Below are positions 11,765 to 45,787 of a stretch of DNA of 64,000 nucleotides, piece by piece. The position numbers were made by a program, and so were the translations under genes. The stretch covers positions 1,547,802 through 1,611,801 of the forward strand of contig JASSUJ010000001.1 in the NCBI GenBank assembly GCA_031963405.1, written 5' to 3'. Below the pieces are notes generated by a model that did no database searches, was not told the origin of the DNA, and saw nothing but the letters and a program-made list of their open reading frames with translations. Source of the stretch: Mycoavidus cysteinexigens. GTDB taxonomy: Bacteria; Pseudomonadota; Gammaproteobacteria; Burkholderiales; Burkholderiaceae. Numbering within the stretch: the stretch's first letter is position 1; every line of letters starts with the position of its first letter.

Positions 11765-11788
11765 CGAAGTAGCGTATGAACTCACGAA
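11765..11788 (-). promoter_or_regulatory. PIP/hrpII-type box TTCG-N16-TTCG
   Basis: The minus strand reads ttcgtgagttcatacgctacttcg (TTCGT-N15-TTCGT). It is about 138 bp upstream of the ATG at 11627 and in the gene's orientation. Confidence 0.6.
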
Positions 11789-12134
11789 AGGAGCAGATAG
11801 CAAGACAATAAATTCTCGCTACAGCTTGAGAAACCAAGATAAGAAAGTTGAGAAGCCAATATTGTTACTAGATTGATTTTTTACAAAATTGGCGTGGGAG
11901 TTGAATGGCAAGCTTTTGGTCTGTACTGCACAAAGCACTCTGGTTTATATGGCCTGGTTTGTTTTTTTGAAGTTTAAGGTGTAAGTTGTTTTTCTCTTCT
12001 ATATATAAATCGTTAAGAAATTTAATATATTATTAATATAGGTTAATGAAAATATCTTGAGGTAATTGTTTTGTTGGTTGAGTAAATTAAGAGTTGTGCA
12101 GTATCTTCATTTAAATTACATCGGTAAAAATTGT

Positions 12135-13337
12135 TTATTCGTGGTTTTCTATCACGCTTTGTCTGTAATATTTTTCGACCCAAGTCAATCCTTTCATCCT
12201 CCTCCAATCTGGTTCATTTTCACTCTCTCTTTGTTCTGAGTCTTCCGTTTTTTGTTGGTTAAGAGAGTTAGGTCTATCAGTATCATATTTTGTTGATTTG
12301 CTTGAATATGAATCTTTCTCAGATAAAGTTTTCTCTGCTGGTTCTGATTCTTCCGTTCCTTGATTGTTAAGAGAGTTAGCTCTATCAGTAGCATCTTTCT
12401 TTGCTTTAGATAATTTCTTTGCTTCGCTAATCATATTTTTTATATCTTGCACAGTAGTTGTCTCATAACTATTTTTATGTGCTAGATCAACGTCATATTT
12501 ATTTTTAAAAATATCCATTAGCACTGTGTTTGCTAAATTCATTTCTTCGCTGAACTTGTCTTTTGCTTGCTGTGAAATAGGGGTTTGATTTCTTGTCCAT
12601 CGAAGATAGGTATTGTTTTCATCTATTATTTGACCAATTAATACATAACCTTTTTGTGGTAATTCATCTATAAATGCATCAATATACGCTGTATTATTTT
12701 CTTTGCGATTAACAATTGCCCCGGTTTTTCTAATTATTGTATTAATGTATTCTGGATTTATTTTTCTAAATAAGAATTCACGTTTGAATTTTTTTATAAC
12801 TTCATATCGTTTTCTTTGAAGCTTCTCTATTGCTGCTTTTGTGTTGTCAACTTTAGTCTGCTCTAATAATTTTTCACTTTTCTTTAGATTCTGTTGAAAC
12901 TCGTCTTGTGCTTCATTAGGCTCCTCTTTTGACCGTATAGCTTCTTCTTTTTTTTCCAAATCGTCCTTTATCGCTTGTATAGCTTCTTCCTGCTGCGTCC
13001 AAAGTTCTTTTATTATTCTTATAGCTTCAGTTTCAATAGCTACGCCTTCTTTTTTTGTAATAAAAAAACTCCGCCATTTAGAAGACCAATTATTTAGCTC
13101 TGGCTGCTTTGTAGCGGCCTTTCTCTGATGCTGTGAAAAAGGAAAGATCGGTTTGCTCCGTAGGTTGTTTGCACTCTGTTTAACTGTATTTTTTAGTGAG
13201 ACAAGACTTCCTTTTATTTTGTTACGCGTGGTAGGGAAGGACGAAGGAGTAGTCCTTCCTGATGCTGATGTTTCTTTTTGGTACTGTTGATTTGGCTCTG
13301 TGCTATTTGTATTTTCGATACTTAGGGACGTTCGCAT
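12135..13337 (-). CDS. AT-rich orphan coiled-coil protein, candidate secreted effector
   Basis: 400-aa ORF. It has a Ser/Thr/Asn-rich N-terminus (MRTSLSIENTNSTEPNQ), a Lys/Glu-rich central coiled-coil-like region and a C-terminal duplicated segment (DATDRANSLNNQGTEESE / YDTDRPNSLNQQKTEDSE). A perfect PIP/hrpII box lies 236 bp upstream. Confidence 0.65.
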   Translation of the reverse strand: MRTSLSIENTNSTEPNQQYQKETSASGRTTPSSFPTTRNKIKGSLVSLKNTVKQSANNLRSKPIFPFSQHQRKAATKQPELNNWSSKWRSFFITKKEGVAIETEAIRIIKELWTQQEEAIQAIKDDLEKKEEAIRSKEEPNEAQDEFQQNLKKSEKLLEQTKVDNTKAAIEKLQRKRYEVIKKFKREFLFRKINPEYINTIIRKTGAIVNRKENNTAYIDAFIDELPQKGYVLIGQIIDENNTYLRWTRNQTPISQQAKDKFSEEMNLANTVLMDIFKNKYDVDLAHKNSYETTTVQDIKNMISEAKKLSKAKKDATDRANSLNNQGTEESEPAEKTLSEKDSYSSKSTKYDTDRPNSLNQQKTEDSEQRESENEPDWRRMKGLTWVEKYYRQSVIENHE

Positions 13338-13572
13338 GGCGTCCTCCTATAAAAGCGTAGATTAATTTTTTTAGGCAGCGCATGAATGCTGTTTTAAGCC
13401 AATTAGCACGGACTTAAATAAGCGTTAAATCAATCGAGAGCAAGACGGTTTGATGTAGATCGCGTGCCTATATGGCACAAAGGCATGACGCGCCCGCCCA
13501 GTTGATTCAGCATTTTCTTAAGCGGAGCTTTTTATATTTTTATACTGATTCAGTTAGATTTCTCTGAAAGCA

Positions 13573-13596
13573 CGAAATGGCAGATGCTTAAGCGAA
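13573..13596 (-). promoter_or_regulatory. PIP/hrpII-type box TTCG-N16-TTCG
   Basis: The minus strand reads ttcgcttaagcatctgccatttcg (TTCGC-N15-TTCGT), about 236 bp upstream of the ATG at 13337. Confidence 0.55.
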
Positions 13597-13646
13597 ATTA
13601 TCTGTAACAAAAGATAAGTTTTAGTTTGAGAGCTTGAAATGTTGCG

Positions 13647-14495
13647 CTAAGCGCAACAAGTAGCATCGCGTGCGATTAAGGCTAATCCTGAGAGTACGAG
13701 GTGCTCGTGATAGGTATAAGGAATAGTGAGACGTTGGGCGACTTCAGCGGCGCTGCCGCCGCTTAAGACACAGCGCGGGATGGTGTTAAGTTGTTGATGC
13801 AGGTCGCGCCAGGCACGCTCGATAAGTGCAGCTTGGGCGAGCAGACAGCCTTCGCTGACAGCTGCTTTTGTGTCGCGAGCGAAGCGTGTTGTGTTGCTGC
13901 CATGCGGTAAAGTGGGAGTGGCAGCAGGAGTGAGCGTGGGAAGTTGTGCTGTGTATTGGCCAAGCGCCTGCATCATCAGCGTGGCGCTAGCAGCGATTAG
14001 CCCACCACTGAAGGTGCCGTTTGCATCCAGGCTTTCGAGTGTGGTGGCAGTGCCAAGCGTAGCGAGCAGGAGCGGTTCGTCAGGATAGGTGGCGCGTGCG
14101 CCGATTAAACCTGCCCAGCGGTCACTGCCAAGCTGCTGAGGTTGGTGATAAAGGTTGGTGACGCCGCATTGGTATGGCTGCGCACTGATGATATGCCGCG
14201 GTGTATGCGGCCAGTGTTGGCTAATGAGCTCGCTCAGCCGTTGCTCAACGGCGTTGCCAGCAACGTTTGAAATCCACACGCTATGTGGGGCAGGGAGTGC
14301 CGACCAATCAGGTGCGGTTGGCATTGCTAAAGCAGGCAATGTTGTGCTGGGTGGTGAATGCGCATGCGCAAAGGTGCCAAGCGCACTGCGCTCGCCGCTG
14401 GCGCTAATGAGAGCCCATTTAACACAACTATTGCCAGCGTCAATAAGTAAAAAAAAGTCGTCAACACACGCGGCCGATAAGCTACTGGGCTTCAT
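13647..14495 (-). CDS. coaX: Type III pantothenate kinase
   Basis: Baf/CoaX family with LLIDAGNSCVKWAL near the N-terminus. The ATG at 14495 overlaps the birA stop as ATGA. An alternative ATG lies at 14513. Confidence 0.85.
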   Translation of the reverse strand: MKPSSLSAACVDDFFLLIDAGNSCVKWALISASGERSALGTFAHAHSPPSTTLPALAMPTAPDWSALPAPHSVWISNVAGNAVEQRLSELISQHWPHTPRHIISAQPYQCGVTNLYHQPQQLGSDRWAGLIGARATYPDEPLLLATLGTATTLESLDANGTFSGGLIAASATLMMQALGQYTAQLPTLTPAATPTLPHGSNTTRFARDTKAAVSEGCLLAQAALIERAWRDLHQQLNTIPRCVLSGGSAAEVAQRLTIPYTYHEHLVLSGLALIARDATCCA

Positions 14496-15403
14496 TCGCC
14501 TGGCTCCGAGCATGATTTCTGCGCAGAGTCTTCTGTTGGGCTTAGGCGTAGCGAGAGGTCTCCGCTGGCAATTGGCTTAATACCGCTCTCACTCTCTAGT
14601 AGCAAACGGCCTATTGAGTCGATGCCAAGCGCAATACCATGTGTGCTTGCTAAACCGCCCTCTAGCAACGTGACACGCTTGCCTGCATAAGCGTGGGCTG
14701 CATTCCATGCGTCTTGGAAAGGCGCAAATCCTTCTACGCTAAAACGTGTAAGCATGGCGGCGAGCGCATTTAGCAAAGCAGCAAAAGTATCCGTCATAGA
14801 AAGGGTCGGCAACAAACGCGCAAGCGCGGCTGGCTGGTTTATACGAGGTGAGGAGGACTTGAGCTCATCTAAATGTTGAGCGAGCGTATCCTCGCCATAA
14901 AGATTAAGACCAATGCCGATCACAGCAGCGCTGGAAGCAGGGGTATGCCAAGCAGTTTCGATCAAGATACCGGCGAGTTTGGCACCATCGAGTAGCACGT
15001 CATTAGGCCACTTCAAGGCTAGCCGCTGTGGTTCAGCCAACGGCAGCGTACGCAACCCGGCAAGCAGCGCTGTTCCAGTGGCGAGGCTTAAGCCCGCCAA
15101 TTCATGAATGGGGCGGGGTATCAAATAAGCAATAGAAAAAAGCAGTGCATTACCGCTCAACCCAAGCCAGCTGCGCCCAAGCCTGCCCCGACCTTGCGTT
15201 TGCGAATAAGCTAAGCGCGCTAGCGGCCGGCTAAACTCGTCCTGCTGGGTGCGCCAGCGCGTGATTAAATCCGTATTGGTGGAGCCGGTTTCGTTAACAA
15301 TTTCTAGTGTGAACTGACGTGCGCGCTCACTGAGCTGATGAGAAAGCTGTATCGGGTCGAGGCGGCGCTTGGCGCGGTCGGTAGAAGAGGAAGAAGCCAC
15401 CAT
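14492..15403 (-). CDS. birA: Biotin--[acetyl-CoA-carboxylase] ligase
   Basis: BPL/LPL catalytic-domain motifs are present (QTQGRGRLGRSWLG, KWPNDVLL). I chose the ATG at 15403. The track ORF starts at the GTG at 15454. Confidence 0.85.
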   Translation of the reverse strand: MVASSSSTDRAKRRLDPIQLSHQLSERARQFTLEIVNETGSTNTDLITRWRTQQDEFSRPLARLAYSQTQGRGRLGRSWLGLSGNALLFSIAYLIPRPIHELAGLSLATGTALLAGLRTLPLAEPQRLALKWPNDVLLDGAKLAGILIETAWHTPASSAAVIGIGLNLYGEDTLAQHLDELKSSSPRINQPAALARLLPTLSMTDTFAALLNALAAMLTRFSVEGFAPFQDAWNAAHAYAGKRVTLLEGGLASTHGIALGIDSIGRLLLESESGIKPIASGDLSLRLSPTEDSAQKSCSEPGE

Positions 15404-15529
15404 GCAAGGCGTAGAGTAATGGTCACGGATTGAAAGCCACTCACTTATCCGCACACAGATAGGGGCGCGGTTGGGTGAGGCGAAAAAACCCCCACATATT
15501 ACCTATATGCTATGGTCTCTGCACAGCTT

Positions 15530-15606
15530 TAGGTAAAGGAAGCACCGAATAAGCCTAAGCCGCGTCATACCGTGCTCGCGATTGATTCAACGCTTCCTTA
15601 CCTAAC
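15530..15606. repeat. Short palindromic element, family C
   Basis: The inverted ends are aggtaaaggaagcaccgaataagc ... gattgattcaacgcttccttacct. The motif GGAAGCGCTGAAT(A/C)A and its complement recur at about 8548, 8720, 9303, 13500, 16621, 24416, 35091, 35175, 52748, 52838, 52996 and 55038. Confidence 0.5.
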
Positions 15607-15843
15607 TTCTAGGTGAAGTGCCTTTCTTGCTGGGTCGCTTTTGAGTAAATGAGTGGACAGTTTCTTGGTCGCCCACTCATAATCGTAAACAACTCAAGCA
15701 TAGCGCTGGCTCGCGACGAGTGACGGCTAGCGTGTAAAACTCTCTTTTATATTCGTGTTTTAGCGCTCGCTTGCATAAATTGGGCAGTCAGAGCAGATAA
15801 ATAGAGGCACGGTAATGAATATAAATTTCTATAAGGTATAAGC

Positions 15844-16383
15844 ATGCATTCTTTTTCTGAGATTCGATTGCGGGCACTGGAAAGAAATGACCTACATTTC
15901 GTGCATATGCTGAATAACAACCAGCGCATCATGCCTTACTGGTTTGAAGAGCCTTATGAGGCTTATGTCGAGCTGGTGCTGCTGTACGATAAACATATCC
16001 AAGATCAAGGCGAGCGGCGCTTTATTGTTGAGAGCCGGGCGGGCGACATGGTCGGCTTAGTCGAGCTGGTTGAAATTGATTACATTCACCGGCGTGCTGA
16101 GTTTCAAATTATTATCGAGCCAAGCCACCAAGGGCGCGGCTATGCTGAAAAAGCGACTTTACTCGCGATTGATTATGCGTTTCGGGTACTGAATTTATAT
16201 AAGCTTTATTTGATTGTTGATAAAGAAAATCACAAAGCAATCCACATTTACACAAAATGCGGTTTCGTTCTTGAAGGGAATCTGTTGCAGGAGTTTTTTG
16301 TCAACGGCATCTATCGAGATGCGATCAGAATGTGCTTGTTCCAGCCTAAATATTTGGCTAGCGAAGAGAGCAACGGCGCATAA
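15844..16383 (+). CDS. speG: Spermidine N1-acetyltransferase (GNAT)
   Basis: 179 aa. It is collinear with my recollection of E. coli SpeG along nearly its whole length ([64 protein letters not shown]). Confidence 0.9.
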
Positions 16384-16440
16384 AAGGCTTTTTCAAGGCG
16401 CGAGGCAAGGCTGCAATTTAGAGGCGAAATCTAATTGGGA

Positions 16441-16516
16441 TGGCGCGCCTGGCAGGGGTCGAACCTGCGACCTTCGGCTTCGGAGGCCGACACTCTATCC
16501 ACTGAGCTACAGGCGC
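16441..16516 (-). tRNA. tRNA-Arg (anticodon CCG)
   Basis: The reverse complement gcgcctgtagctcagtggatagagtgtcggcctccgaagccgaaggtcgcaggttcgacccctgccaggcgcgcca folds as a cloverleaf. Acceptor stem is gcgcctg/caggcgc, the anticodon loop is ctCCGaa, the T-arm is ggttcgacc, and the CCA is encoded. Confidence 0.9.
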
Positions 16517-17074
16517 TTTAAGATTATTTCTACGAAAATAACTAAAGATCGAACGTATAAATTGTATAGACCTTAAATGCAGGGCTGAAGCATACCCATT
16601 TCAGCGCCTAAAGTCCATTTAAGGAAGCACTGAATAGCCTAGAGGCGATGTATATCTCTGCCGTCTGCATTCCTGGCTTGCGCTATCCGGCACTTCTTTG
16701 CGTAGAATGTATTTCATCAATATCTAAAAATTGTTAAAGAAGGGGCAACTTAGTTGCCCAGCTAAGAAGAGCGCGGCGCAGCAAGCAATAGCTAGTTGGA
16801 TTTGAATTTTGTTTCAGGTAAATCTTTTCGCATGCTCAGATTAAGCGGAATTTGTGAAGATCAAGTGTTCAACCCAAATACTGCACGTTATCAACGAATA
16901 TGCTTATGAGAAGAGCTGAATAAACTGCTTTTAGTGCTTATACATTAGGCTTATCAGCCTTTCGGGTAAGTGCTTTATTCAAGGTTTTCTATGTTCGCAA
17001 TCTGTCACGGCCCTTGGTCGGCTTAGGCATGGCCTGTGCAACGTTTGCCCTGTTAATTATTTAAACCAAACAAG

Positions 17075-17686: not shown

Positions 17687-17848
17687 AAGTATTTATTGCT
17701 GGAGCTGCTTATTATCTACTTATGCTCAGCACAAATTATTGCTTAAGAAATTTAGCAATCAGCCTCACTTTAGCCAAGCGCAAATTATCTGAACAATACC
17801 TAGTTAGTGGGTTAGCAGCGAAGCTCGTCTTATTAGAAAAAACCCTTA

Positions 17849-18307: not shown

Positions 18308-18458
18308 AATAATTAAAGCTAATAATATTGGAGATGAAGTTGTTGCTTGGTTTGAGACGTGGGGTGAAGAAAATGCAAAGGCTGTGCCTGTATCCAACCT
18401 TACCCCGACATAACCGAGGTAAGGTCTTTATATTTTTATTAAGCGAAGAGATTTTTTA

Positions 18459-19202
18459 TTATCTGGGAATAATATTTAAAGAATAGAGATGTAGGCCGGC
18501 ATTTCTATAGTCTAGTTTTGGAATGATAATCGAAATAATATTATTATCTTGTTCCTCTGTGTCAAATAAAAGAGAAGCGCATTGCTCTGAGTTTGCCTCA
18601 GATAATTCAAATTCTTCTTCATGCAACTTTTCTTTACCGAAACTGCCAATATAAACTTTATATTTTCCTAATGGCTTTGTCCCATAACCGCAGTTAGTAG
18701 ATGCTTCGATATGAAGGGAAAATTTCTTAGGAAATGGCGAAGCAAACTCAATTAAAACAGTATCCCTGTTCAACTGTGCATATCGCCCTCTTATTGGGAC
18801 ATCAAGAACTATGCGCCCGCCTCCCTTTGTGAACATTTCAGTTGCTCCTTGAAACCCCTCAATGCGCGTGACTACGTTGCTAGATGCACTGGTAAAGTTA
18901 AAGAAAATATTATTTTTTACGGGTAAATTTGAGCTTGCTATTGAGCTTCGGCTTAAAGTTTCATTTAGTTTTTCTAATAACTTTTCTAGCGCTGAAATTC
19001 TTTGATTGGTATCTTTAATTGAATTTTCTATAGTGCATGATCTATTTTTTTGCTCAAGTTTAAATTCCTCAAACCCTTCATTAAGTTCTCTAAATTCTGC
19101 GCCTAGCTCATTTACCGTCTCAGAAAGCGAGCTATTATCCTCTATAGGAAAATCATGTTCAATTGGAGGGTTATTCTGAACTGTAGTATTAATTATGCGC
19201 AT
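18459..19202 (-). CDS. AT-rich orphan protein with an N-terminal coiled coil and a beta-rich C-terminal domain
   Basis: 247-aa ORF. It starts MRIINTTVQNNPPIEHD, has a heptad-like segment (RISALEKLLEKLNETL), then a beta-strand-rich C-terminal half. The region is AT-rich and I recognise no family. Confidence 0.55.
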   Translation of the reverse strand: MRIINTTVQNNPPIEHDFPIEDNSSLSETVNELGAEFRELNEGFEEFKLEQKNRSCTIENSIKDTNQRISALEKLLEKLNETLSRSSIASSNLPVKNNIFFNFTSASSNVVTRIEGFQGATEMFTKGGGRIVLDVPIRGRYAQLNRDTVLIEFASPFPKKFSLHIEASTNCGYGTKPLGKYKVYIGSFGKEKLHEEEFELSEANSEQCASLLFDTEEQDNNIISIIIPKLDYRNAGLHLYSLNIIPR

Positions 19203-19708: not shown

Positions 19709-19745
19709 CAGCGGAGCCGATTCAAAAAACAAATCGGCTCCGCTG
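19709..19745. terminator. Stem-loop, candidate terminator downstream of the Tim44-like gene
   Basis: cagcggagccgatt-caaaaaaca-aatcggctccgctg forms a 14-bp perfect stem about 50 bp beyond the stop at 19794. The flanking U-tract is weak. Confidence 0.45.
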
Positions 19746-19793
19746 CGGTGCGTGCTCTGGCTGAGAAGCGCAGCACTTGATCAGAAGTAGAGG

Positions 19794-22468: not shown

Positions 22469-23146
22469 ATGCTCCCTATTGAAACACTGCCATCCCAGTC
22501 ATCGATCCTCACCAATCACGCTCGTAGGGTTGACCACACTCCTCATAAACTTGACGCAGCCATTCAGCCTTTGCTTCAGGAGGCCGAGAAAATACTTGAA
22601 GAACTCGGACCTGTACCTCCATTGGAGGGGTACATGAGAAAAACTCCTTCGGTGCTGGCGGATAGCTTTTTAAGCGGTGTCCAAGCAGTAGCGAAAAGGG
22701 GTGATACAACAATGTTGTACATGGCTATGTTTATACCAGTAAGTGCAGTAGTAAGTGCATTAGCAGATATTTTTTTAGCGAAAACAGAATCCAAGCTTAA
22801 CGAAAAAATCGCGCTGCTTATTCTGCTTTGTATGCTCATCCCCTCTTTTGCTCAAAATTTTGGAAGCTACACGCTGCAAAGACACAATTGGTTATCGTTG
22901 CACGATATTGCTGAAAACTTAGTTTCAACTTTAAAGCTAGCCGAGGCAGCAGCAGAAGGTGAAACACAGCAGCCATCATCTTTAGCGCGAAAGGTAATAT
23001 CAGATAAGGTCGCATTACAAGCGCTTAAGGAGCGTATAGCGGCTCCAATGCGAGCAATGACACCGGAAGACAACTTACTTATTGAGCGACTGCAAAGCCT
23101 TCTTGAACAAACAGCGCTTTTTTGCCGAAACTCGCCAATTTTTTAA
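22469..23146 (+). CDS. Orphan membrane protein with paired hydrophobic segments
   Basis: 225-aa ORF starting MLPIETLPSQSSILTNHARR. Two hydrophobic stretches (MLYMAMFIPVSAVVSALADIFL and IALLILLCMLIPSFAQNF) are separated by a short loop. The C-terminal half is helical. I recognise no family. Confidence 0.5.
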   Translation: MLPIETLPSQSSILTNHARRVDHTPHKLDAAIQPLLQEAEKILEELGPVPPLEGYMRKTPSVLADSFLSGVQAVAKRGDTTMLYMAMFIPVSAVVSALADIFLAKTESKLNEKIALLILLCMLIPSFAQNFGSYTLQRHNWLSLHDIAENLVSTLKLAEAAAEGETQQPSSLARKVISDKVALQALKERIAAPMRAMTPEDNLLIERLQSLLEQTALFCRNSPIF

Positions 23147-23257: not shown

Positions 23258-24223
23258 TTAGACACATAATAAAAAAGAGACATCATGTCGAATATCTCTT
23301 TTTTTGCTGACTGACTCTTGATTAATTGCCTTAGAAAATTTATCAATAACTTCTATTGTCGTTCCTTCTTCTTGTGGAAGCTTTTCTGCCTCTTCTAAAG
23401 TGGTTTTCGCTTTTTTTATTCTTTTTCTAGGTTCATCTGCGAAATTATCAAATTTTTCGTGTGGAATTGAGAAAGCGTTAGTGCCTAGCAAAAATTGTTT
23501 CGCCCTACCTTTTGATGTGCCCTCGGCGTGTAAACGTGTTTCTGCCTCTTGGTGAGTAAGAAATTCATTTTCTACGAGAAGTTTTAGCTCTTCTGCATTT
23601 CTCTTAAGTGCACCACGTGATCCTGCATTCGCACCCGTTAAATATCGTTTAACCGTGCTCTTCGCTGCGCCCTTTTCTTGTAAAAGTTTTTCTGCCTCTT
23701 TACGAGTAAGGTGGCCGTTTTCTATAAGAGGTCTAAGCTCTTTTGCATACTTCTTAAATTCGCCAGTTGGGCTTGGGTTTGTGCCAGGGGACATATATTT
23801 TTTAGCCGTATCTTTTGCAGCACCCTTCGCTTGTAAATGCTTTTCTGCCTCTTTACGGGTAAGGATGCCATTTTCTACGAGAGGTCTAAGCTTTGCTGCA
23901 TATCCCCTAAGTTTTCCCCATGAGATTGTGCTCATATCCATAAAATACTGCTGAGCTGCACCCTGCGCTATGTCTTTGACGGGTAAATATTCTTGCCCCC
24001 CTTGCTCAGTTATACCTTCGCTTCTTATAGAGGAGCTACAGAGCCTCTGCATATTTCCTTGATTAAGGTATGTCTCTGCTGTCAGTAGATTATTACGGCC
24101 AGGAGATACAACGTCGTCCAACGGCGTATGTAGAGGTTCGCTAACTTCGTGTGCGGATTTATTAAGTGCTGCTGTAACGCTTGAGGTAGGTTGAATCGTA
24201 TTGCTTAAGGTTATTGCTGTCAT
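23258..24223 (-). CDS. Orphan tandem-repeat protein (about 4 x 51 aa), candidate secreted effector
   Basis: 321 aa starting MTAITLSNTIQPTSSVTAAL. Repeats such as YAAKLRPLVENGILTRKEAEKHLQAKGAAKDTAKKY / YAKELRPLIENGHLTRKEAEKLLQEKGAAKSTVKRY / NAEELKLLVENEFLTHQEAETRLHAEGTSKGRAKQF, plus a degenerate fourth, are also visible as DNA similarity over 23333-23917. A perfect PIP/hrpII box lies 74 bp upstream. Confidence 0.65.
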   Translation of the reverse strand: MTAITLSNTIQPTSSVTAALNKSAHEVSEPLHTPLDDVVSPGRNNLLTAETYLNQGNMQRLCSSSIRSEGITEQGGQEYLPVKDIAQGAAQQYFMDMSTISWGKLRGYAAKLRPLVENGILTRKEAEKHLQAKGAAKDTAKKYMSPGTNPSPTGEFKKYAKELRPLIENGHLTRKEAEKLLQEKGAAKSTVKRYLTGANAGSRGALKRNAEELKLLVENEFLTHQEAETRLHAEGTSKGRAKQFLLGTNAFSIPHEKFDNFADEPRKRIKKAKTTLEEAEKLPQEEGTTIEVIDKFSKAINQESVSKKRDIRHDVSFLLCV

Positions 24224-24296
24224 GGGGGGGTATTTCGCGCTTTATTTTTCTATCCAAAAGTTTATGGGCAGCGATACCCATAAACGTAATAAATAG

Positions 24297-24320
24297 CGAA
24301 TATTTTTGCGTTAAAACGAA
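24297..24320 (-). promoter_or_regulatory. PIP/hrpII-type box TTCG-N16-TTCG
   Basis: The minus strand reads ttcgttttaacgcaaaaatattcg (TTCGT-N15-TTCGC), about 74 bp upstream of the ATG at 24223. Confidence 0.6.
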
Positions 24321-37438: not shown

Positions 37439-37625
37439 ATCATACTTTTGGGCATTGACCCAGCAGATAGCGGGCTATTCCTCATGCTACAGTTGACTTA
37501 TTCTTATCGGCTATTTGTCGTTAAATTGATGGTTAATGTCATTAAAAGGACCTAATTTCTCGATAGAGACAATGTTTTATAGGCAGCCTTGACAAGCCCT
37601 TTCAATGCAATTTTTATAAGAAAGC

Positions 37626-38330
37626 TTACCGGGGCCGGGATCGGCTTCTCTTTACTGTATGGGAAATTTCTTGAGAAGCTTGCTGCGGCGCTAAAGGTGC
37701 AGAGGGGCGGCGCGTGCGAGACTGACTTATGTCTAGCTGTTGCGGACGCTCAACTGACACTGAAGAGTATGAATTTTCCGTAGCGTAAGCAGTGTTGCGC
37801 TGAGACTGCGATGTCAACGAGGTTTGCGTAGCAGGGTCTGCTTCTTTCGCGCGTGCTTGATCATAAACAGAATAAGTCTCTCCTAGCGCTATTGCAGGCG
37901 TAGCAGCTTGCGATTGATGAGCATAAGGCGAAGCCTCATGTTTTGCCTGGGACTGCGCCGGGGGTGTCAAAACGTTTGGATATGACTGCGCAGATTGAGT
38001 GTAAGGATGAGGTGACCCACTCCCTGGCAGCGCGTGGGGTGGTGATGCTTCTTCGTAAGTAGGAGGGGAAGTTTCGAAAGCTGACCTCCCTAACGGGTCA
38101 TCTCTAACCTGAGAATGTGCAGCTTCGGCAGTTTGCTCACTTGAGGGTAACGGTGCGCTATTTTTGCCTTTAAGGAGTCTCAGCATGTTAGAGAGTCTCT
38201 GCTGAATACCAGCCTGCGGTTTTTTTTCAGTTTTCTCTGTAGTGGTGGAAGCTGCACTAGAAGTGTTACTACCGCTATTGCTTTTCTCTACCGGCCTCAT
38301 CACCCTTCTCCTTTTATTCTTTAGCTTCAT
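37626..38330 (-). CDS. Low-complexity Ser/Pro/Gln/Ala-rich orphan protein with a PPxY motif
   Basis: The 234-aa ORF looks disordered throughout. PPTY is at aa 89-92 (nt 38055-38066). The start is either MKLKNKRRRV or MRPVEKSNSGSNTSS (ATG at 38300). A one-mismatch PIP-like box lies at 38396-38419. Coding status is less certain because of the low-complexity composition. Confidence 0.5.
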   Translation of the reverse strand: MKLKNKRRRVMRPVEKSNSGSNTSSAASTTTEKTEKKPQAGIQQRLSNMLRLLKGKNSAPLPSSEQTAEAAHSQVRDDPLGRSAFETSPPTYEEASPPHALPGSGSPHPYTQSAQSYPNVLTPPAQSQAKHEASPYAHQSQAATPAIALGETYSVYDQARAKEADPATQTSLTSQSQRNTAYATENSYSSVSVERPQQLDISQSRTRRPSAPLAPQQASQEISHTVKRSRSRPR

Positions 38331-38559
38331 AGATGTAATTTCTACATATATATGCTCACTATAAGAAGTAGTGGTATATGGCTATCTCAAGACTCAGAAA
38401 AGAAGTAAAGCAAAGCGAAATAGGGCAAGTGTGCAGCTCTGTCCCCCTGTCCTTTTAAGATCGCAGAATAGCTTTTTACTGGAGGGAGTCTCTCATTGAT
38501 ACAAAAGTGCGCTTGCATCGAAAATTCGGTGCAGCTGAGTAATTAATATGTATTGAAAA

Positions 38560-39426
38560 TTACTTATCAGCAGGCTGCATTAGCTTTTCTCTTAATGCTT
38601 TTAATACTGATCCGCTTTCGGGGTGCACGCCGTGCCAGACAAAGAATGATTCAGCAGCTTGTTCGACGAGCATGCCGAGTCCGTCGGTGGTGTGGGCTTG
38701 GTGAGCGCTAGCGTGCTGCATAAAGGCGGTAGGTTGCCCGCTATACATGAGATCGTAGGCGAGGGTGTGGCGTGTGAGTGCGGTGGTGTCAAATTCGGGT
38801 AGCGCGCCATTGAGGCTGCTGGCGGTAGCGTTGATGATGAGGTCAAACGGGCCGCGTGCGATTTCACTGCCGCCACCTATTAAGCGACAGCCTGTGCTGA
38901 GCGCAGCGGCTGCAAAATGATCTGCAAGCTCAGCAGCACGTGCAGCGGTACGGTTGGTAATAACAATTTCAGCAGGCTGCGTCTCAAGCAGCGGTAATAG
39001 GATGCCTCGCGCAGCGCCCCCGGCGCCTAATAGCAGAATACGAGATTGGGTAAGTGTGAAACCAAGGTTATGCACCAGATCACGCACTAAACCGATACCG
39101 TCGGTATTGTCGCCATATAGAAATTCGCCTTCTACACGCAAGGTGTTCACTGAGCCTGCTGCTGCAGCACGCTCAGACAGGGTGTCAGCTAGTGCATGAG
39201 CTTCTAATTTGAAAGGCGTCGTAACGTTAAGGCCACGCCCGCCATGCGCGATAAAGTCACGCACTGTCTTGGTAAAGCTACCAAGTGGCGCCAGTAAGCG
39301 CGTGTACTCGATAGGCTCGTGCGTTTGGCTGGCAAAAAGGCTATGGATAAAAGGCGATTGGCTATGCTCCACTGGGTTGCCAATCACTGCATAGGAATGC
39401 CGACCTAAGTCAGATGGCGGTGTCAT
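38560..39426 (-). CDS. aroE: Shikimate dehydrogenase
   Basis: YAVIGNPVEHSQSPFIH, the NVTTPFK motif and the LLGAGGAARG NADP loop are present. I chose the ATG at 39426. An alternative ATG at 39459 overlaps the upstream gene by 8 nt. Confidence 0.9.
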   Translation of the reverse strand: MTPPSDLGRHSYAVIGNPVEHSQSPFIHSLFASQTHEPIEYTRLLAPLGSFTKTVRDFIAHGGRGLNVTTPFKLEAHALADTLSERAAAAGSVNTLRVEGEFLYGDNTDGIGLVRDLVHNLGFTLTQSRILLLGAGGAARGILLPLLETQPAEIVITNRTAARAAELADHFAAAALSTGCRLIGGGSEIARGPFDLIINATASSLNGALPEFDTTALTRHTLAYDLMYSGQPTAFMQHASAHQAHTTDGLGMLVEQAAESFFVWHGVHPESGSVLKALREKLMQPADK

Positions 39427-39451
39427 GCAGACCTTCTCATCGTGTTCGATT

Positions 39452-41449
39452 TTAGGCATTTGTGCTTGTCGTCTCTTCGCTACACTCAGTCTTTTCCTCA
39501 GCAGCTAACTCGGGCACCGATTCAGCAGGCGGTGTTTCAGCAGTCTCAGTCGTATTCAATACTTGTACGAGGCGGCACGAGAGATCCAGAATCAATTCAT
39601 CAGTACTCAGAATATCTAGCAACAACTTAGTACCGTTTGCTTGAATGCCCAGGCCAGGTACGTTAAGCGAGAGGGGAATCTCGTCAAGTCGTACCAAGTC
39701 ACCTTTTATGACTGAAGCGACAACGCGTTCACGTTTTTCCTGCCGCAACCAACGCAAACACCAGAAGCGTTCCATCTTTCTTTGATGGTCGTTATACGCT
39801 GCGTAAGTGTCGGTGAAGCTTTGCGCTATCGTATACAGCGCTGCATCTTTGGGCTTAAAGGGCGAGGTTAATTTGGCAGCGACGCCATCTTGTATGCAGG
39901 AGATCAACTGCCATTGGTTGACCAAATCGATGTAGCGGCGCAGCGGTGATGTGCTCCACGCATATTGCGCTACCCCTAAGCCTTCATGCGGGGCAGGCGT
40001 AAGCTGCATGCGCGTGCGGTTGGCGCCAAATGAGCGCTGTGTGCGATAAATGCCGGGTACGCCATGCTCAGCAAGTAATCCGCCCCAGGTGCTGTTCGCC
40101 AAAATGGCAAGTTCAGCGACAATTAAGCCAATGGGCGAATGGCGTGGACGGGGTAGGATGGTGACGTGTTCGTTATCGATATAAAAACTAAACTCAGCAT
40201 ATTGCTGGGTTTCTCGTCTTAGCCCGTAACCAATGCGTGCTTCCTGCCGCTTTTCATAGAGTGCTTGCGCAAATGGCCAGAGCACGGCGATTTCATCTTT
40301 GTACGGATAGTCGCCGCTGCCTGCCGCAAGTGCTTCTTCGGTAACTTTGTCATCCAGTTGGTGGTAACGCAGATTATGCGCAATAAAAACGCTTTCTACG
40401 CGGCTCTCGCTCGCCACAATTTGTTGCGAGGTGGTGTCAATAATGACGTACAGCGAGAGGGCGGGCCGGTTGCCCCCTTCTTGGAGTGTAAATACGTCAA
40501 CGACAGCGTCGGGCAGCATGGTAATTTTCTCGCCCGGCATATACACCGTAGATAAGCGATCTCGTGCGAGAACATCGACAGGATCGTCGCATTTAATCCC
40601 AAGCGCTGGAGCGGCGATATGAATGCCAATCCGTAGCAGCCCATCTGCAAGGCGTTGTACCGAGAATGCGTCGTCAATTTCAGTCGTCGTGACATCATCA
40701 ATCGAAAACGCTTGCACGTCGGCGGTAGGCAGCTTATCTAATTGCGCATTAGCTAAATTTAATTTGGCGCTTGCTGGCCAAACCACGCCGCGCGGAAAGA
40801 ATTCAGCCAGAAAACGTGCCTCATGCAAGGCGCGTGGTGAGGCGATACCGCCGCAATCAAGCATTAACTGGGCGTGCGATTTGCCGAGCGCAGCAGAGGC
40901 AGCATCGAGCGCCTTATATTCAAGCGTGCTTTTGTCAGGCTGAGTTAATAAGGTGAGTGCTTTATCTTTGAGGGCATCGGGCAAGCGTAAATTTTTTAAT
41001 TCTGCTTCATAGCCCGCCTGAATTTCGGCTTGCTGCCGGCGGCGCTCAAGGGCTACGAGCGCGGCTTTTAATTGTTCTGCTGGAGCGCGCTGATAATTGC
41101 CCCGTCCTTTGCGGCGAAAATAGGCAGGCGCACCGTGTAGCTTCAGCGCGAGCGCAGCACGCTCAGCGGGTGCGGCGCTTGCGCCAAAGTATTCGTTGGC
41201 CAGTGCGAGAAAGTGAAACTCTTCTTCAGGCGCGCATTCCCACAAAAAATCAGGATCAATTTGCTGTGCGCATTCATTGGCTGTATGTACCCAATCCGTC
41301 AGTGAAGGCGTCTCAAACTCAATCAAAATTTCTTTTGCTTTAACTTTCGCCCGTCTGCCACCTGGCAATTCGACTTGCAATGCTTCACCTTGGCGCGACA
41401 AGATAGTGCCGGCTTTAAAGCTTCCTGATTCTTCAAAAAAAATATTCAC
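39452..41449 (-). CDS. RNB-domain exoribonuclease (RNase II/R family)
   Basis: About 665 aa with an RNB catalytic-core motif (FSIDDVTTTEIDDAFS) and ...TSPLRRYIDLVNQWQL. The GTG at 41449 (VNIFFEESGSFKAG) overlaps the yqiA-like stop as GTGA. Confidence 0.85.
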   Translation of the reverse strand: MNIFFEESGSFKAGTILSRQGEALQVELPGGRRAKVKAKEILIEFETPSLTDWVHTANECAQQIDPDFLWECAPEEEFHFLALANEYFGASAAPAERAALALKLHGAPAYFRRKGRGNYQRAPAEQLKAALVALERRRQQAEIQAGYEAELKNLRLPDALKDKALTLLTQPDKSTLEYKALDAASAALGKSHAQLMLDCGGIASPRALHEARFLAEFFPRGVVWPASAKLNLANAQLDKLPTADVQAFSIDDVTTTEIDDAFSVQRLADGLLRIGIHIAAPALGIKCDDPVDVLARDRLSTVYMPGEKITMLPDAVVDVFTLQEGGNRPALSLYVIIDTTSQQIVASESRVESVFIAHNLRYHQLDDKVTEEALAAGSGDYPYKDEIAVLWPFAQALYEKRQEARIGYGLRRETQQYAEFSFYIDNEHVTILPRPRHSPIGLIVAELAILANSTWGGLLAEHGVPGIYRTQRSFGANRTRMQLTPAPHEGLGVAQYAWSTSPLRRYIDLVNQWQLISCIQDGVAAKLTSPFKPKDAALYTIAQSFTDTYAAYNDHQRKMERFWCLRWLRQEKRERVVASVIKGDLVRLDEIPLSLNVPGLGIQANGTKLLLDILSTDELILDLSCRLVQVLNTTETAETPPAESVPELAAEEKTECSEETTSTNA

Positions 41450-42048
41450 TGAAAAACTCTCTTCAGGCGGCCGCTTGGACAAGCGATACCGCAAAATTTT
41501 AAGACTTCATCGACATGCTCAGCAAAATCACTCAGGCCATGATTGCTGCCCTGGATGAGCGTGGTCCTAACTTTAGGATATTTTGTAAGCATGTCCCGAT
41601 AATCGAGTACTTGGTCGCCCGTAGCGGCAATTAAATAATAGCGCTCCGGGCGCGTTATGTTGGGCATTGCAAATTCGGTTAATTCATCTAAATAAGCGGG
41701 CAGGCACGCCGTATCGCTAATCATCTGTTCGTTCACCTGCTCGCTCAAATAGCGTGGCGCATCATGTGATGGCTGGGTAGCCGGATTAAGTAATACAGCG
41801 CGACAGCCAAATTGCTCAGCAAACCAAGTTGCATAATAGCCACCTAATGAGCTGCCTATCAACGTGAGATCAGCTGGCGCATACGTGTTGCACAGCGCTT
41901 TGATAAGCGCGCCGGTTTTAGCCGGTGAGATAGGAAGCTGCGGGCACTGCCAAAGGTCCGCGTAGCCTAGCTCCGTAAGCCGCGCTGCTAGCAGCTGTGC
42001 TTTAAACGAAGCGGGCGATGCGCGAAAACCATGCAGATAGACAATCAT
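41446..42048 (-). CDS. YqiA/YcfP-family alpha/beta hydrolase (esterase)
   Basis: 200 aa with MIVYLHGFRASPAS and the nucleophile elbow GSSLGG. The start overlaps the mpl stop (ATGA). Confidence 0.8.
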   Translation of the reverse strand: MIVYLHGFRASPASFKAQLLAARLTELGYADLWQCPQLPISPAKTGALIKALCNTYAPADLTLIGSSLGGYYATWFAEQFGCRAVLLNPATQPSHDAPRYLSEQVNEQMISDTACLPAYLDELTEFAMPNITRPERYYLIAATGDQVLDYRDMLTKYPKVRTTLIQGSNHGLSDFAEHVDEVLKFCGIACPSGRLKRVFQ

Positions 42049-43460
42049 CCTTGCACTTGAGCAAACTCAGCGGCGCCGAGCGTAGTGAGTAACTTATCGT
42101 GAATTCCACCAAAGCCGCCATTACTCATGACTAGAATATGGTCGCCAGGACGTGCCTGGGTCGCGACAGCGCGTATGAGTTGATCCAGATCGTCAAACGC
42201 ATACGCACGCTCTTCGCCTAGTGGCGCAAGGGTTAGTGCTAAATCCCAGTTGAGTGTGTCACGCCCTTCTTTGACGCTATAGCCGAATACTAAATCAGCG
42301 CCAGCCAAGCTAGTTAAGAGGCGTGCCTTCATCAGCCCAAGTTTCATCGTATTGGAACGTGGCTCAAGCACGGCCAGAATGCGCCCCTGCTCGCCAATCC
42401 GTGCTCGCAAGCCTGCAATGGTCGTGCCGATGGCAGTGGGATGGTGGGCAAAATCATCGTATAGGGTGATGCCATTTACCTCGCCGCGCACTTCCATGCG
42501 GCGTTTGACGCCCTGAAATTCGCTCAGTGCCTCTGCACCTTGCGCTGGCGGAACGCCCAGATGGCGCGCAGCCGCAATAGCAGCAAGGGCATTGAGGCGA
42601 TTATGCTCGCCTTGCAGTGCCCAGTTAACGGTGCCCACTTGTTGTGCTTGCCAGTGGATAGCGAATTTCTCTGCTGTGGCTGAGGTGCCATCGATAATCT
42701 GCGCCTGCCATCCATCGGGCGTGCCAAAATATTCAAGCTCGCTCCAACAGCCACGGTCGATGACACGTTTTAAAGCCTCTTCTCGACCGTTCACAAGCAG
42801 CCGCCCAGAAGCAGGTACGATACGCATTAAATGATGAAATTGCGTTTCAATCGCTGCAAGATCAGCGAAAATATCAGCATGATCATATTCAAGGTTGTTG
42901 AGAATGACGGTGCGAGGACGATAGTGGACAAATTTTGAGCGCTTATCAAAAAACGCTGTATCGTACTCATCAGCTTCGATAACAAAAAAATTGGAGTCAG
43001 CGTTAAGACGTGCCGATACGCCAAAATTGAGTGGCACGCCGCCAATTAAAAAGCTTGGATTAAGGCCAGCTGCTTCAAGCAGCCACGTCAGCATGGAGGC
43101 GGTAGTGGTCTTGCCGTGAGTGCCGGCTACGGCTAGTACCCATTTATTGGCTAAGACGTGCTCGCTAAGCCATTGTGGGCCTGATGTATAGGGCAGGCCT
43201 CGATCGAGGATGGCTTCCATTAACGGATTGCCGCGCTTAACGACATTGCCAATCACATAAAGATCAGGTGCCGAATCGAACTGAGTGAGCTGAGCAGTGC
43301 TGTAACCGTCAATCAACTCAATGCCTTGCGCCTCAAGCTGTGTGCTCATCGGCGGATAAACCTGAGCGTCGCAGCCAGTGACTCGATGACCAGCGGCGCG
43401 TGCTAACAAAGCAAGGCCGCCCATGAAAGTGCCGCAAATGCCAAGGATATGGATATGCAT
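42045..43460 (-). CDS. mpl: UDP-N-acetylmuramate:L-alanyl-gamma-D-glutamyl-meso-diaminopimelate ligase
   Basis: Mur ligase family with MHIHILGICGTFMGGLA and the P-loop VAGTHGKTTT. I chose the ATG at 43460. The track ORF extends to 43499. Confidence 0.9.
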   Translation of the reverse strand: MHIHILGICGTFMGGLALLARAAGHRVTGCDAQVYPPMSTQLEAQGIELIDGYSTAQLTQFDSAPDLYVIGNVVKRGNPLMEAILDRGLPYTSGPQWLSEHVLANKWVLAVAGTHGKTTTASMLTWLLEAAGLNPSFLIGGVPLNFGVSARLNADSNFFVIEADEYDTAFFDKRSKFVHYRPRTVILNNLEYDHADIFADLAAIETQFHHLMRIVPASGRLLVNGREEALKRVIDRGCWSELEYFGTPDGWQAQIIDGTSATAEKFAIHWQAQQVGTVNWALQGEHNRLNALAAIAAARHLGVPPAQGAEALSEFQGVKRRMEVRGEVNGITLYDDFAHHPTAIGTTIAGLRARIGEQGRILAVLEPRSNTMKLGLMKARLLTSLAGADLVFGYSVKEGRDTLNWDLALTLAPLGEERAYAFDDLDQLIRAVATQARPGDHILVMSNGGFGGIHDKLLTTLGAAEFAQVQG

Positions 43461-43590
43461 CAGAGTGTATCGAGGAAAGATGGGTATAAAGCGTTGCATT
43501 GTACCCTTGTCGACGCGTTTTGCTTGCCCGCCTTTGCCTGTTCTATTAATGATTTACTCCGCTAACTAGAAGGCGGATGGATGTAATTAA

Positions 43591-44145
43591 ATGAAAAAAA
43601 ATAAAATGACACGTCAGATTTTGTCCAACATTAAGCAAGAAGAGCAAGGTATCTCAAGCTTTGCCGTGGAAGCGGGGCAGCTTGAGCAGTTAGCTGTCTT
43701 ACGCAAAATCGCTTTGCATTGGATGGCGCGCTTAGCTAGCTTTAATCCGTATTTAATAGGTGAGGTATTAGAGGGTACGGCCACTCAATACTCTGATATT
43801 AGTTTGCAGATTTTTTGCGATGACACAAAAGAGCTGGCTATTTTTCTGCTCGACGCAGGGATCCAATATCAAGTTAACCCAACGCCAGTCACTCGCTTTA
43901 CTCACGCCAGCAAACATCGCAGTGAGACGCTGAGCTTTATTTGGCAGAGCGCAAATAATGAAGAGGCAGTAGGGATTCACCTTGAGGTATATGATCTGGA
44001 CGATTTACGCCGGCTGCCACGTGCTGATGCGCAGGGTAGGCCCCTGCGTATGAATCAGCAAAAAGTTGCTGCATTGATTAAAAATAGTGAGGGTAGCGAG
44101 GCAGAATCTGCAAATGGCTTGTCTGATGCGCCACCTTCTGTTTAA
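43591..44145 (+). CDS. Conserved hypothetical protein (possibly a minimal nucleotidyltransferase-like fold)
   Basis: 184-aa ORF. The segment LIGEVLEGTATQYSDISLQIFCDD loosely resembles the GS-x-G...D-x-D core of nucleotidyltransferases. The assignment is weak. Confidence 0.5.
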   Translation: MKKNKMTRQILSNIKQEEQGISSFAVEAGQLEQLAVLRKIALHWMARLASFNPYLIGEVLEGTATQYSDISLQIFCDDTKELAIFLLDAGIQYQVNPTPVTRFTHASKHRSETLSFIWQSANNEEAVGIHLEVYDLDDLRRLPRADAQGRPLRMNQQKVAALIKNSEGSEAESANGLSDAPPSV

Positions 44146-44236
44146 GAAGCAAATTAATAAGCGAGATAAAAGGTGAGATAAAAGGCGAGCGCTGGTGGCT
44201 TGTGCAACCTAAAGCTAAATTTATCTAGAAAAATAA

Positions 44237-44788
44237 ATGAAGACAAAGCGCCTTTTTATATTGATGTGGTTGGTTGGCGGGTTAGCTTGCACGATTGGCC
44301 TTTATGCCAGCTGGCGCTTTTTTAAAGAGCCGTTTAAACAAACCAGACCAAGCACGAATCTTGCCGCGTTGTGGCAGGCTAAGCTGCCCGACCAAGTGGG
44401 CCGTATGCAGTCGCTTGCTCAATATCGAGGCCGCCCGCTTGTGGTGAATTTTTGGGCTGCATGGTGTGAGCCTTGTGTTGAAGAGATGCCCGTGCTATCC
44501 GCTTTGCAAAAGAAATACGCAGCTAAAGGCGTTCATTTTATTGGTATCGCCGTTGACTCTGCGACTAACGTCGCGCAATTTATGCAAAAAGTAAAAGTAG
44601 ATTACGCGCTTTATAGCGCTGGCTATGGAGGACTAGCGCTTGCGCGTGCACTGGGTAATACGCAGGGCGGGCTGCCCTTTACCGTATTAATCGATGCTTC
44701 AGGCAAGATACATAGCACGCTGCTTGGCAGTGTTACGCGTGATGAAAAGCGGTTAAACGCTTTGTCAGAGCAACTGGATGCGTTGTAA
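44237..44788 (+). CDS. TlpA-family thiol:disulfide oxidoreductase (thioredoxin fold)
   Basis: It has an N-terminal TM/signal anchor and the redox motif VVNFWAAWCEPCVEEMP. Confidence 0.8.
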   Translation: MKTKRLFILMWLVGGLACTIGLYASWRFFKEPFKQTRPSTNLAALWQAKLPDQVGRMQSLAQYRGRPLVVNFWAAWCEPCVEEMPVLSALQKKYAAKGVHFIGIAVDSATNVAQFMQKVKVDYALYSAGYGGLALARALGNTQGGLPFTVLIDASGKIHSTLLGSVTRDEKRLNALSEQLDAL

Positions 44789-44820
44789 TTTGGTGAGGGT
44801 TTTACCCATTTGCTTTTATG

Positions 44821-45602
44821 TTAGTGCCTATGCTGTGCACGCCGACCTTCTTGATTCCCCAAAATCTTCGCCGCTTCTGACTTAATAGCTTGGATTGCCT
44901 CTTCTACAGGCTTCTGTCCAAGATTATTTCTCACACTTTTTGCGGCGCTCAACGCCGTTTCCCCTTTTATCCCCACTACCCCCTCTATATCAACTAGCGT
45001 GGGGTTTGCGCCTTTGAATTTCACCGCGTGTTCTGCTGTAGGGTCATTTAGGGTCTCTGTTAGGGTGTGCAGCGCCGTTTTGCCATCCCGTTGCCCTGTT
45101 TTTCCAGCTTATCGAATGCTGCTGCTGAGATATGCAGTGCCGTTTTACGATCTTGATCAATTAATTTGGGATCCGCGCCTTTCTCGAGCAAGAGCGTGAT
45201 GACTTGGGCTGCATGCTTAGCTGCGGGGCCACGTAAGGCTTTTGCTACGATATTCAGTACTAGCTGCCCCTCTTTATCATGCTGATTAAGTTCTATTCCG
45301 CCCTTAGACAATAGCTCGTTGATGACTGTTGCAGCGTGCTCCGCTCCAGGGCCATTTAGGGCTTTTGCCGCGACATGCAGTGCTGTTTTACGATCGTGAG
45401 TAGTGAGTTCGGGCTCTTGATCGTTTCTGAGCAGTAGCGTGATTACCTCTGTCGCCTGCTGTGCTTCCTGGCCGTCTAGCAATATGGTTGCGAGATGCAA
45501 CGCCATCCTACGGTTTTGATGAGCTAGCTCTGGGGTTGTGCGGTCCGCGAGCAATTGTTGGATTTCTGCTAGCGTTGGTTTTACTTGCTCAATATCAGGC
45601 AT
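44821..45602 (-). pseudogene. Ankyrin-repeat protein gene interrupted by a frameshift at a T5/A5 run
   Basis: Two adjacent ORFs (45060-45602 and 44821-45024, whose frame is open upstream to about 45110) both encode ANK-like repeats (KTALHVAAKALNGPGAEHAATVINELL; KTALHTLTETLNDPTAEHAV). Adding one A to the A5 run (plus-strand T5 at 45099-45103) gives a single 260-codon ORF that reads ...DKLEKTGQRDGKTALHTL.... Confidence 0.7.
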
Positions 45603-45763
45603 ATCTATGATTATCCGCTCAGGGTTTACCTTCTTCGCTAGCTCAATAAACCGTTCCTTGCTTCACGTAGCTTGACGGTAGTTGGAAGATAGTCTGGAAT
45701 CTTTGAAATAAAATGAGTTCTAGTAAAGTAAGGCAATCGTTCAAATGCTTTCGTAGGGTGATA

Positions 45764-45787
45764 CGAAATTTTGCTTGAGCACGCGAA
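45764..45787 (-). promoter_or_regulatory. PIP/hrpII-type box TTCG-N16-TTCG
   Basis: The minus strand reads ttcgcgtgctcaagcaaaatttcg (TTCGC-N15-TTCGT), about 162 bp upstream of the ankyrin gene ATG at 45602. Confidence 0.55.

Follow-up and report, generated by a model that had tools for sequence, protein, structure and literature searches.

Candidate HrpB/HrpX-type promoter boxes in front of orphan and ankyrin-repeat genes in the endofungal symbiont Mycoavidus cysteinexigens

Introduction

Do the TTCG direct repeats that precede several orphan genes in a 64,000-nucleotide stretch of Mycoavidus cysteinexigens DNA (GenBank assembly GCA_031963405.1, contig JASSUJ010000001.1, positions 1,547,802 to 1,611,801 of the forward strand; hereafter the window) mark a dispersed set of candidate effectors of a T3SS (type III secretion system)? 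The repeat, TTCG-N16-TTCG, is the hrpII box of the AraC-type activator HrpB and, in the form TTCGB-N15-TTCGB, the plant-inducible-promoter (PIP) box of HrpX, and mining genomes for effectors by means of such boxes is standard in plant-pathogen genomics. The published working definition of HrpX/HrpB promoters extends the motif to TTCGB-N15-TTCGB-N30-32-YANNNT, activation requiring both the box and a correctly spaced -10 element (PMC13436205). For endofungal bacteria the picture is sparser: a 2025 review describes the T3SS effectors required for hyphal entry in the Rhizopus-Mycetohabitans symbiosis as remaining elusive and names only the TAL-like family (PMC12306442), and in the literature we found no paper on hrpII boxes or on a box-defined effector set in Mycoavidus. 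A first-pass annotation of the window had proposed that four perfect boxes and two one-mismatch variants control orphan genes for T3SS substrates. Here we report that the perfect boxes are placed far more selectively than chance predicts, that two of them have the full HrpB-type promoter geometry, and that the other two are conserved in other Mycoavidus genomes, and we argue that they are probably sites of an HrpB/HrpX-type regulon.

Results

A scan of the full window recovered four perfect copies of TTCG-N16-TTCG. Each lies on the minus strand, is compatible with the stricter TTCGB-N15-TTCGB form and stands exactly at the position first proposed (Table 1). The proposal had argued, on the basis of equal base frequencies, that such a number could hardly arise by chance, and in this it overstated its case: the whole window holds four boxes versus 2.67 expected, and at least four were present in 25 of 100 dinucleotide-preserving shuffles. 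For the TTCGB-N15-TTCGB form the four observed boxes compare with 1.59 expected, a number reached in 7 of 100 shuffles. The raw count of boxes is unremarkable; the signal is their placement. On a gene map assembled from open reading frames (ORFs) and family scans, by which 78% of the window is coding and 14.0 kb is intergenic, none of the four perfect boxes falls into coding DNA (1.1 expected), which the first-pass annotation had scanned only in part, and all four fall into intergenic DNA (0.27-0.43 expected). Moreover, all four have a same-strand gene start no more than 300 bp downstream, compared to 0.10 expected (Poisson P about 4e-6). The genes reached in this way, at distances of 73-235 bp, are three orphans and one ankyrin-repeat gene, each co-oriented with its box as claimed, and in the window as a whole a perfect box stands ahead of four of the roughly 11 genes for orphans or ankyrin proteins and of none of the roughly 42 housekeeping genes. 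One-mismatch boxes behave differently as a class, with 12 of 42 located in intergenic DNA versus 22% expected and hence no intergenic enrichment, so that the two variant boxes each require support beyond motif statistics.

Table 1. Window coordinates of the boxes, of the -10 and -10-like elements and of the genes behind the boxes. Genes are named after the position of their start codon; lengths are in amino acids (aa).
Feature	Position	Strand	Description
Perfect box 1	11765..11788	-	TTCGTGAGTTCATACGCTACTTCG; TTCGB-N15-TTCGB; 137 bp from box end to ATG at 11627
Perfect box 2	13573..13596	-	TTCGCTTAAGCATCTGCCATTTCG; ATG at 13337 is 235 bp downstream; directly 3' of coaX
Perfect box 3	24297..24320	-	TTCGTTTTAACGCAAAAATATTCG; ATG at 24223 is 73 bp downstream
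Perfect box 4	45764..45787	-	TTCGCGTGCTCAAGCAAAATTTCG; ATG at 45602 is 161 bp downstream
One-mismatch box	38396..38419	-	TTCG-N16-TTCT; g38330 start 65 bp downstream
One-mismatch box	51177..51200	-	TTCG-N16-TTCT; g51082 start 94 bp downstream; AT-rich background
-10-like TAAAACT of box 1	11728..11734	-	+31..+37 after box; AAAACT at canonical offset, first base A not Y
-10-like TAAAAAT of box 2	13536..13542	-	+31..+37 after box; first hexamer base A not Y
-10 TAAACT of box 3	24259..24264	-	31 nt past second TTCGB half-site; full pattern
-10 TACTTT of box 4	45725..45730	-	32 nt past second TTCGB half-site; full pattern
TATAGT of variant box 38396-38419	38358-38363	-	canonical offset
g11627, candidate effector	11085..11627	-	180 aa; no family; Pro/Ser-rich; conserved PPIPxR
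g13337, candidate effector	12135..13337	-	400 aa; 34% GC; no family; polar N-terminus; predicted long helices
g24223, candidate effector	23258..24223	-	321-aa orphan; predicted disordered first ~100 aa, then three tandem three-helix repeats
g45602, ankyrin-repeat gene	45060..45602	-	180 aa; Ank_2, 40 bits
g38330, candidate effector	37626..38330	-	234 aa; Ser/Thr/Pro/Gln-rich; no family
g51082, candidate effector	50195..51082	-	295 aa; 28% GC; polar N-terminus; acidic run; no family

The distance between box and -10 element gave a second measure. The full TTCGB-N15-TTCGB-N30-32-YANNNT pattern occurs twice in the window, at boxes 3 and 4, versus 0.15 expected, and two occurrences were seen in only 1 of 100 shuffles. 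The -10 element, for which the first-pass annotation had been unable to confirm proper spacing, can now be located at canonical distance for boxes 3 and 4. Boxes 1 and 2 have the -10-like hexamers AAAACT and AAAAAT at +32..+37, in which the A and the T that are conserved in the element stand at the right offset and the first base is A in place of Y. The orthologue of box 2 in the Mycoavidus locus L001 (see below) fits the full pattern with a strict YANNNT. Upstream of g11627 and g13337 we found no sigma-70 promoter of -35/-10 consensus, and the lack of a -35 promoter at these two genes fits what is expected of activator-dependent promoters.

The same scan was run on the hrp cluster of Ralstonia solanacearum GMI1000 as a positive control and revealed 12 boxes in 49 kb versus 1.6 expected, 10 of which fit the full pattern including YANNNT; this cluster encodes HrpB, an AraC-type protein of 477 aa. 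Full patterns likewise stand ahead of two further operons, hrcC on a Herminiimonas-like contig (L007:5752-5813) and hrpB1 in the T3SS cluster of a metagenome contig of 57% GC (L004:3433-3494). These two matches show that the architecture of box plus -10 element reaches into Hrp2 clusters of the Oxalobacteraceae type.

Conservation was assessed by comparison with sister loci. The window has a GC content of 47% and housekeeping genes typical of Burkholderiales, two Mycoavidus metagenome-assembled genomes (loci L001 and L002; CoaX 79% identical) come closest to it in the species collection, and its Mpl is 86% identical to that of Mycoavidus BRE-AD051 (locus L010) and 75% identical to that of a genome presumed to be AG77 (locus L011). 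The bacterium therefore belongs to the Mycoavidus lineage of endosymbionts of Mortierellaceae fungi. Both L001 and L002 carry boxes at the positions orthologous to boxes 1 and 2, that is, just 3' of coaX and ahead of the next gene. At box 1 (L001:12757-12780, L002:12602-12625) the two half-sites are kept along with much of the 16-nt spacer, and GTGTAAAACT, in the -10-like region of this promoter, is invariant across the three species; at box 2 (L001:10910-10933, L002:10914-10937) the half-sites are invariant in the alignment. By contrast, the proteins encoded behind these boxes are only 22-27% (g11627) and 24-29% (g13337) identical to their orthologues in L001 and L002, compared to 79-86% for housekeeping neighbours. 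Because the half-sites were kept while flanking DNA and coding sequence diverged, the boxes appear to be under ongoing selection, and a promoter better conserved than the coding sequence behind it is to be expected where a regulatory site controls an effector gene that evolves fast. The genes behind boxes 3 and 4 are absent from the sister genomes (g45602 is missing at the syntenic site of BRE-AD051, for example) and sit as insertions between conserved housekeeping genes.

Three further observations concern the g11627 and g13337 loci. A second conserved element, AAT(C/T)TAA(T/C), lies 13-20 nt past the box (window 11740-11765 and 13548-13573) and is kept in the three species; it is common only to the g11627 and g13337 promoter families, stands outside the known hrpII/PIP architecture and could be the site of a second factor or the trace of a promoter duplication. 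The 5' leader of g13337 contains, between box and start codon, a 115-bp insertion with a GC-rich hairpin (13387-13501) that is absent from L001 and L002 and has no further copy within the window. Finally, the g11627 family retains the motif PPIPxR (PxxPxR, SH3-ligand-like) in three species despite its low overall identity.

The genes occupying the syntenic slots of other Mycoavidus genomes bear on both variant boxes. In the aroE-pyrF slot, where the window has g38330, BRE-AD051 encodes a 747-aa patatin-like phospholipase (87.8 bits), and 65 bp upstream of this gene is a perfect box (L010:14509-14532) followed by a -10 element at canonical distance. The region of variant box 38396-38419 aligns with the region of this perfect box, and the cargo proteins are unrelated. 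Across three genomes the aroE slot thus holds a 234-aa orphan (window 37626-38565), the 747-aa patatin (L010:14410-16840) and a 662-aa WD40 protein (L011:14228-16740), and the alignment between window and BRE-AD051 suggests that here the promoter was retained and the cargo exchanged. In the dut-coaBC slot, where the window has g51082, BRE-AD051 encodes a 520-aa leucine-rich-repeat (LRR) protein with an additional, sub-threshold F-box-like match (LPPEMIFMIDQYL), an architecture that we take to resemble that of the Ralstonia GALA effectors; its gene is preceded by TTCT-N16-TTCG, with one mismatch, and by TATTAT at the canonical offset. The promoters of g51082 and of this LRR gene do not align. 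Of the two one-mismatch sites put forward in the first-pass annotation, that at 38396-38419 is thus credible, by virtue of its TATAGT and its alignment with BRE-AD051, and that at 51177-51200, with neither a YANNNT at the canonical offset nor an alignment, is weak. The four perfect-box members are well supported.

We then considered the proteins behind the six boxes. Ankyrin repeats were correctly called for g45602, which alone matches a Pfam family, and the other five have none, in keeping with the initial impression that they belong to no recognisable family. Sequence searches of PDB with g11627, g13337, g38330 and g51082 returned nothing meaningful. A search of 1.84 billion representative proteins with g24223 returned only g24223 itself and one weak repeat match, and Foldseek found no significant neighbour of the g24223 model in PDB. 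In composition, however, the six proteins stand apart from the rest of the window: residues S, T, P, N and Q make up 43% of their first 50 aa versus 26% in other window proteins (Mann-Whitney P=1.6e-4), and the GC content of their genes is 0.41 versus 0.49 for other window genes. The N-terminal composition initially ascribed to these proteins is that of five of the six, which are polar and have at most one acidic residue among the first 12; the exception is g45602, whose first 50 aa contain no Ser and whose first 12 contain two acidic residues. A hydrophobic N-terminus of the Sec type is absent from all six. AlphaFold predicted a low-confidence N-terminal region in both proteins that were folded, g24223 and g13337 (the latter a poor single-sequence model).

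The predicted g24223 repeats, three or possibly four in number, are about 50 aa long; each consists of three helices and carries the motif LxxLVENGxLTxxEAE. The sole distant match of g24223, the repeat protein P0329 (E=5e-5), has a signal-peptide-like N-terminus.

No HrpB/HrpX-type AraC activator is encoded within the window, and no Mycoavidus protein was among the 120 matches listed in HrpB searches seeded with Ralstonia HrpB and a low-GC homologue. As identity between the HrpB proteins of Mycetohabitans and Ralstonia is only 36-37%, a Mycoavidus orthologue would plausibly rank just below these 120 matches. Low-GC HrpB candidates chosen by amino-acid composition were considered as Mycoavidus proteins and rejected, because they belong to the 57% GC metagenome contig, to a Uliginosibacterium-like contig of 55% GC and to the Herminiimonas clade. 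On the other hand, published tables credit M. cysteinexigens B1-EB with orthologues of hrpB from B. rhizoxinica, of an HrpG-like response regulator, of hpaB and of sctD/E/Q/R/S/V, and also with an AraC-type protein that is 43% identical over its full length and lies in a cluster with EscR/EscS (PMC5877345 supplement). In Mycetohabitans, a sister genus that also lives in fungi, hrpB and sctC are neighbours, the sctD and hrpB1 operons have plain boxes ahead of them, and the btl (TAL-like) effector genes have an hrpII box within about 200 bp upstream (PMC11261895).

Discussion

The motif with its placement and conservation, the geometry of the promoters and the kind of cargo found here and in relatives are all seen directly, and on their basis we consider it likely that the boxes are sites of an HrpB/HrpX-type regulon in Mycoavidus and that its dispersed members are candidate T3SS effectors. 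The proposal of the first-pass annotation that boxes of this type mark dispersed candidate effectors is thus supported, as far as sequence comparison reaches, by geometry, conservation, sister-genome cargo and the context of the genus. From these observations we infer that HrpB binds the boxes, that the genes are co-regulated with the T3SS and that their products are secreted. In such a scheme, an AraC-type activator of the HrpB/HrpX kind would bind the hrpII/PIP boxes, each with two TTCG half-sites 20 bp apart and a -10 hexamer that follows about 31-32 bp downstream. Since these promoters appear to have no usable -35 element, transcription of the downstream genes would depend on the activator and would be induced together with a T3SS of the Hrp type. 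The genes themselves are AT-rich, lineage-variable and apparently fast-evolving, and their products, with predicted disordered polar N-termini or eukaryote-like repeats, would most likely be T3SS substrates delivered into the fungal host.

Several observations weigh against this reading. A strict YANNNT is absent from two of the four perfect boxes (1 and 2), and the variant box at 51177-51200, having neither the -10 element nor the alignment with BRE-AD051, is the weakest member of the set. The T3SS of Mycoavidus AG77 has been described as Salmonella/Yersinia-like (PMC5877345), and L011, the locus presumed to be from AG77, lacks a box ahead of the WD40 gene that occupies its aroE slot; the sole box of that locus lies inside a coding region. 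The lack of a Mycoavidus protein among the 120 HrpB matches listed, the atypical N-terminus of g45602 and the dissimilarity of all six proteins to known effector families are further points of this kind, as are the observations on HrpX regulons elsewhere, and most of them bear on one of the following alternatives.

The alternative that survives best, and that we nonetheless hold to be unlikely, is that the boxes are genuinely of the HrpB type and that some or all of the products are not T3SS substrates, being accessory, regulatory or otherwise exported. There is precedent for it: in Acidovorax a gene with a PIP box and HrpX-dependent expression was not translocated, and HrpX/HrpB regulons elsewhere include non-secreted proteins as well as enzymes secreted by the type II pathway (PMC6913199), and g45602, with its N-terminus, and the want of likeness to known effectors would suit such a set of genes. 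It is harder to square with the proteins as a group, given the absence of Sec-type N-termini from all six, the polar and acid-poor N-termini of five, and the low-confidence N-terminal regions in both folded models. The domains found as cargo here and in BRE-AD051 (patatin, F-box-like/LRR and ankyrin) are ones that act in eukaryotic cells, and the presence of box genes differs between species, both of which argue for effectors rather than for accessory functions.

Less probable again is that the direct repeat is bound by some other factor unrelated to T3SS, or is what remains of a regulon that has lost its regulator or T3SS in the course of genome reduction. The 120 HrpB matches without a Mycoavidus entry, the boxless slot of L011 and the AAT(C/T)TAA(T/C) element shared by the g11627 and g13337 promoters, foreign to the known motif, speak for such a reading. 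Against it, the motif and its distance to the -10 element are exactly those found in the T3SS clusters of Ralstonia, of the Herminiimonas-like contig and of Mycetohabitans, and the half-sites were kept in three species amid diverged flanks and coding sequence, which points to ongoing selection; furthermore, the published tables for the genus list orthologues of hrpB and of T3SS genes. That AT-rich intergenic DNA produced the boxes by chance, as the ordinary window count, the lack of intergenic enrichment among one-mismatch boxes and the box within an L011 coding region (chance matches do happen) might suggest, is very improbable in view of the placement statistics, the excess of full patterns with a -10 element, the conservation of box positions in other species and the perfect box ahead of the BRE-AD051 patatin gene.

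If the boxes are read as HrpB-type sites, the closest known systems are the hrpII/HrpB regulon of R. solanacearum, with which we group the HrpB regulon of the Burkholderia pseudomallei T3SS2. Mycoavidus and Ralstonia are both Burkholderiaceae, share the TTCG-N16-TTCG core and the distance to YANNNT (in 10 of 12 GMI1000 boxes and in two window boxes), and have boxes that front dispersed genes, which in Ralstonia encode effectors. They differ in that Ralstonia is a plant pathogen of 67% GC, as opposed to a reduced endofungal symbiont of about 47-49% GC, that the window proteins have no homology to Rip effectors and that two window promoters have AAAACT or AAAAAT instead of YANNNT. Regulator dependence was shown by experiment in Ralstonia and is predicted from sequence for the window. 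The PIP/HrpX systems of Xanthomonas, Acidovorax and Xylophilus are similar in motif, as all four perfect window boxes fit TTCGB-N15-TTCGB and two fit the full pattern used in effector mining (PMC13436205, PMC6913199), and dissimilar in that these bacteria belong to another class or family, have plant rather than fungal hosts and have no effector families in common with the window. The closest biological analogue is the hrp T3SS with its btl effectors in Mycetohabitans (Burkholderia) rhizoxinica, likewise an endofungal member of the Burkholderiaceae, with an HrpB orthologue adjoining sctC and boxes on the sctD and hrpB1 operons and on the btl genes. Nevertheless, this is a different genus with a Rhizopus host in place of Mortierellaceae, and the window candidates are not TAL-like. 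The window set extends a known kind of HrpB/hrpII-box regulon and embodies no new principle.

Should the box be functional in Mycoavidus, a genome-wide search for TTCGB-N15-TTCGB with a spaced -10 element would yield a ranked list of effectors for a second endofungal model. Such a list would hold the six window genes along with the patatin and F-box-like/LRR proteins of BRE-AD051, and manipulation of the Mortierellaceae host by these bacteria would become a testable question. As a more tentative possibility, to which we would give clearly less than an even chance, HrpB-box promoters in Mycoavidus could serve as fixed landing pads between housekeeping genes at which the effector cargo is swapped between species. 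No transposase or integrase family was present among the window genes scanned or the L010 and L011 genes listed, in scans that were not aimed at mobile elements. If this idea is correct, promoter-anchored exchange of cargo would give the reduced genome of an endosymbiont a way of turning over its effectors.

Other features of the window

Five more ORFs with no family or only a weak match have no box within one mismatch: 18459-19202 (-), 22469-23146 (+), 43591-44145 (+), 52100-52666 (-) and 56684-57904 (+). Two of the five are AT-rich (34-36% GC), 18459-19202 encodes a polar N-terminus and the product of 56684-57904 is coiled-coil-like; the sister loci have neither 18459-19202 nor 22469-23146. 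These boxless ORFs may encode effectors under other control, or no effectors.

Methionine synthase is split in the window (4445-8429, -) into a gene for a 363-aa homocysteine S-methyltransferase domain (7338-8429) and one for the 914-aa rest of MetH (4445-7189). The sole Rfam/ARAGORN match is a tRNA-Arg(CCG) gene at 16441-16516 (-). In L011 (1-7373), the type VI secretion genes VgrG, VasE, DotU and IcmF lie directly upstream of mpl, a position at which the window and BRE-AD051 have none.

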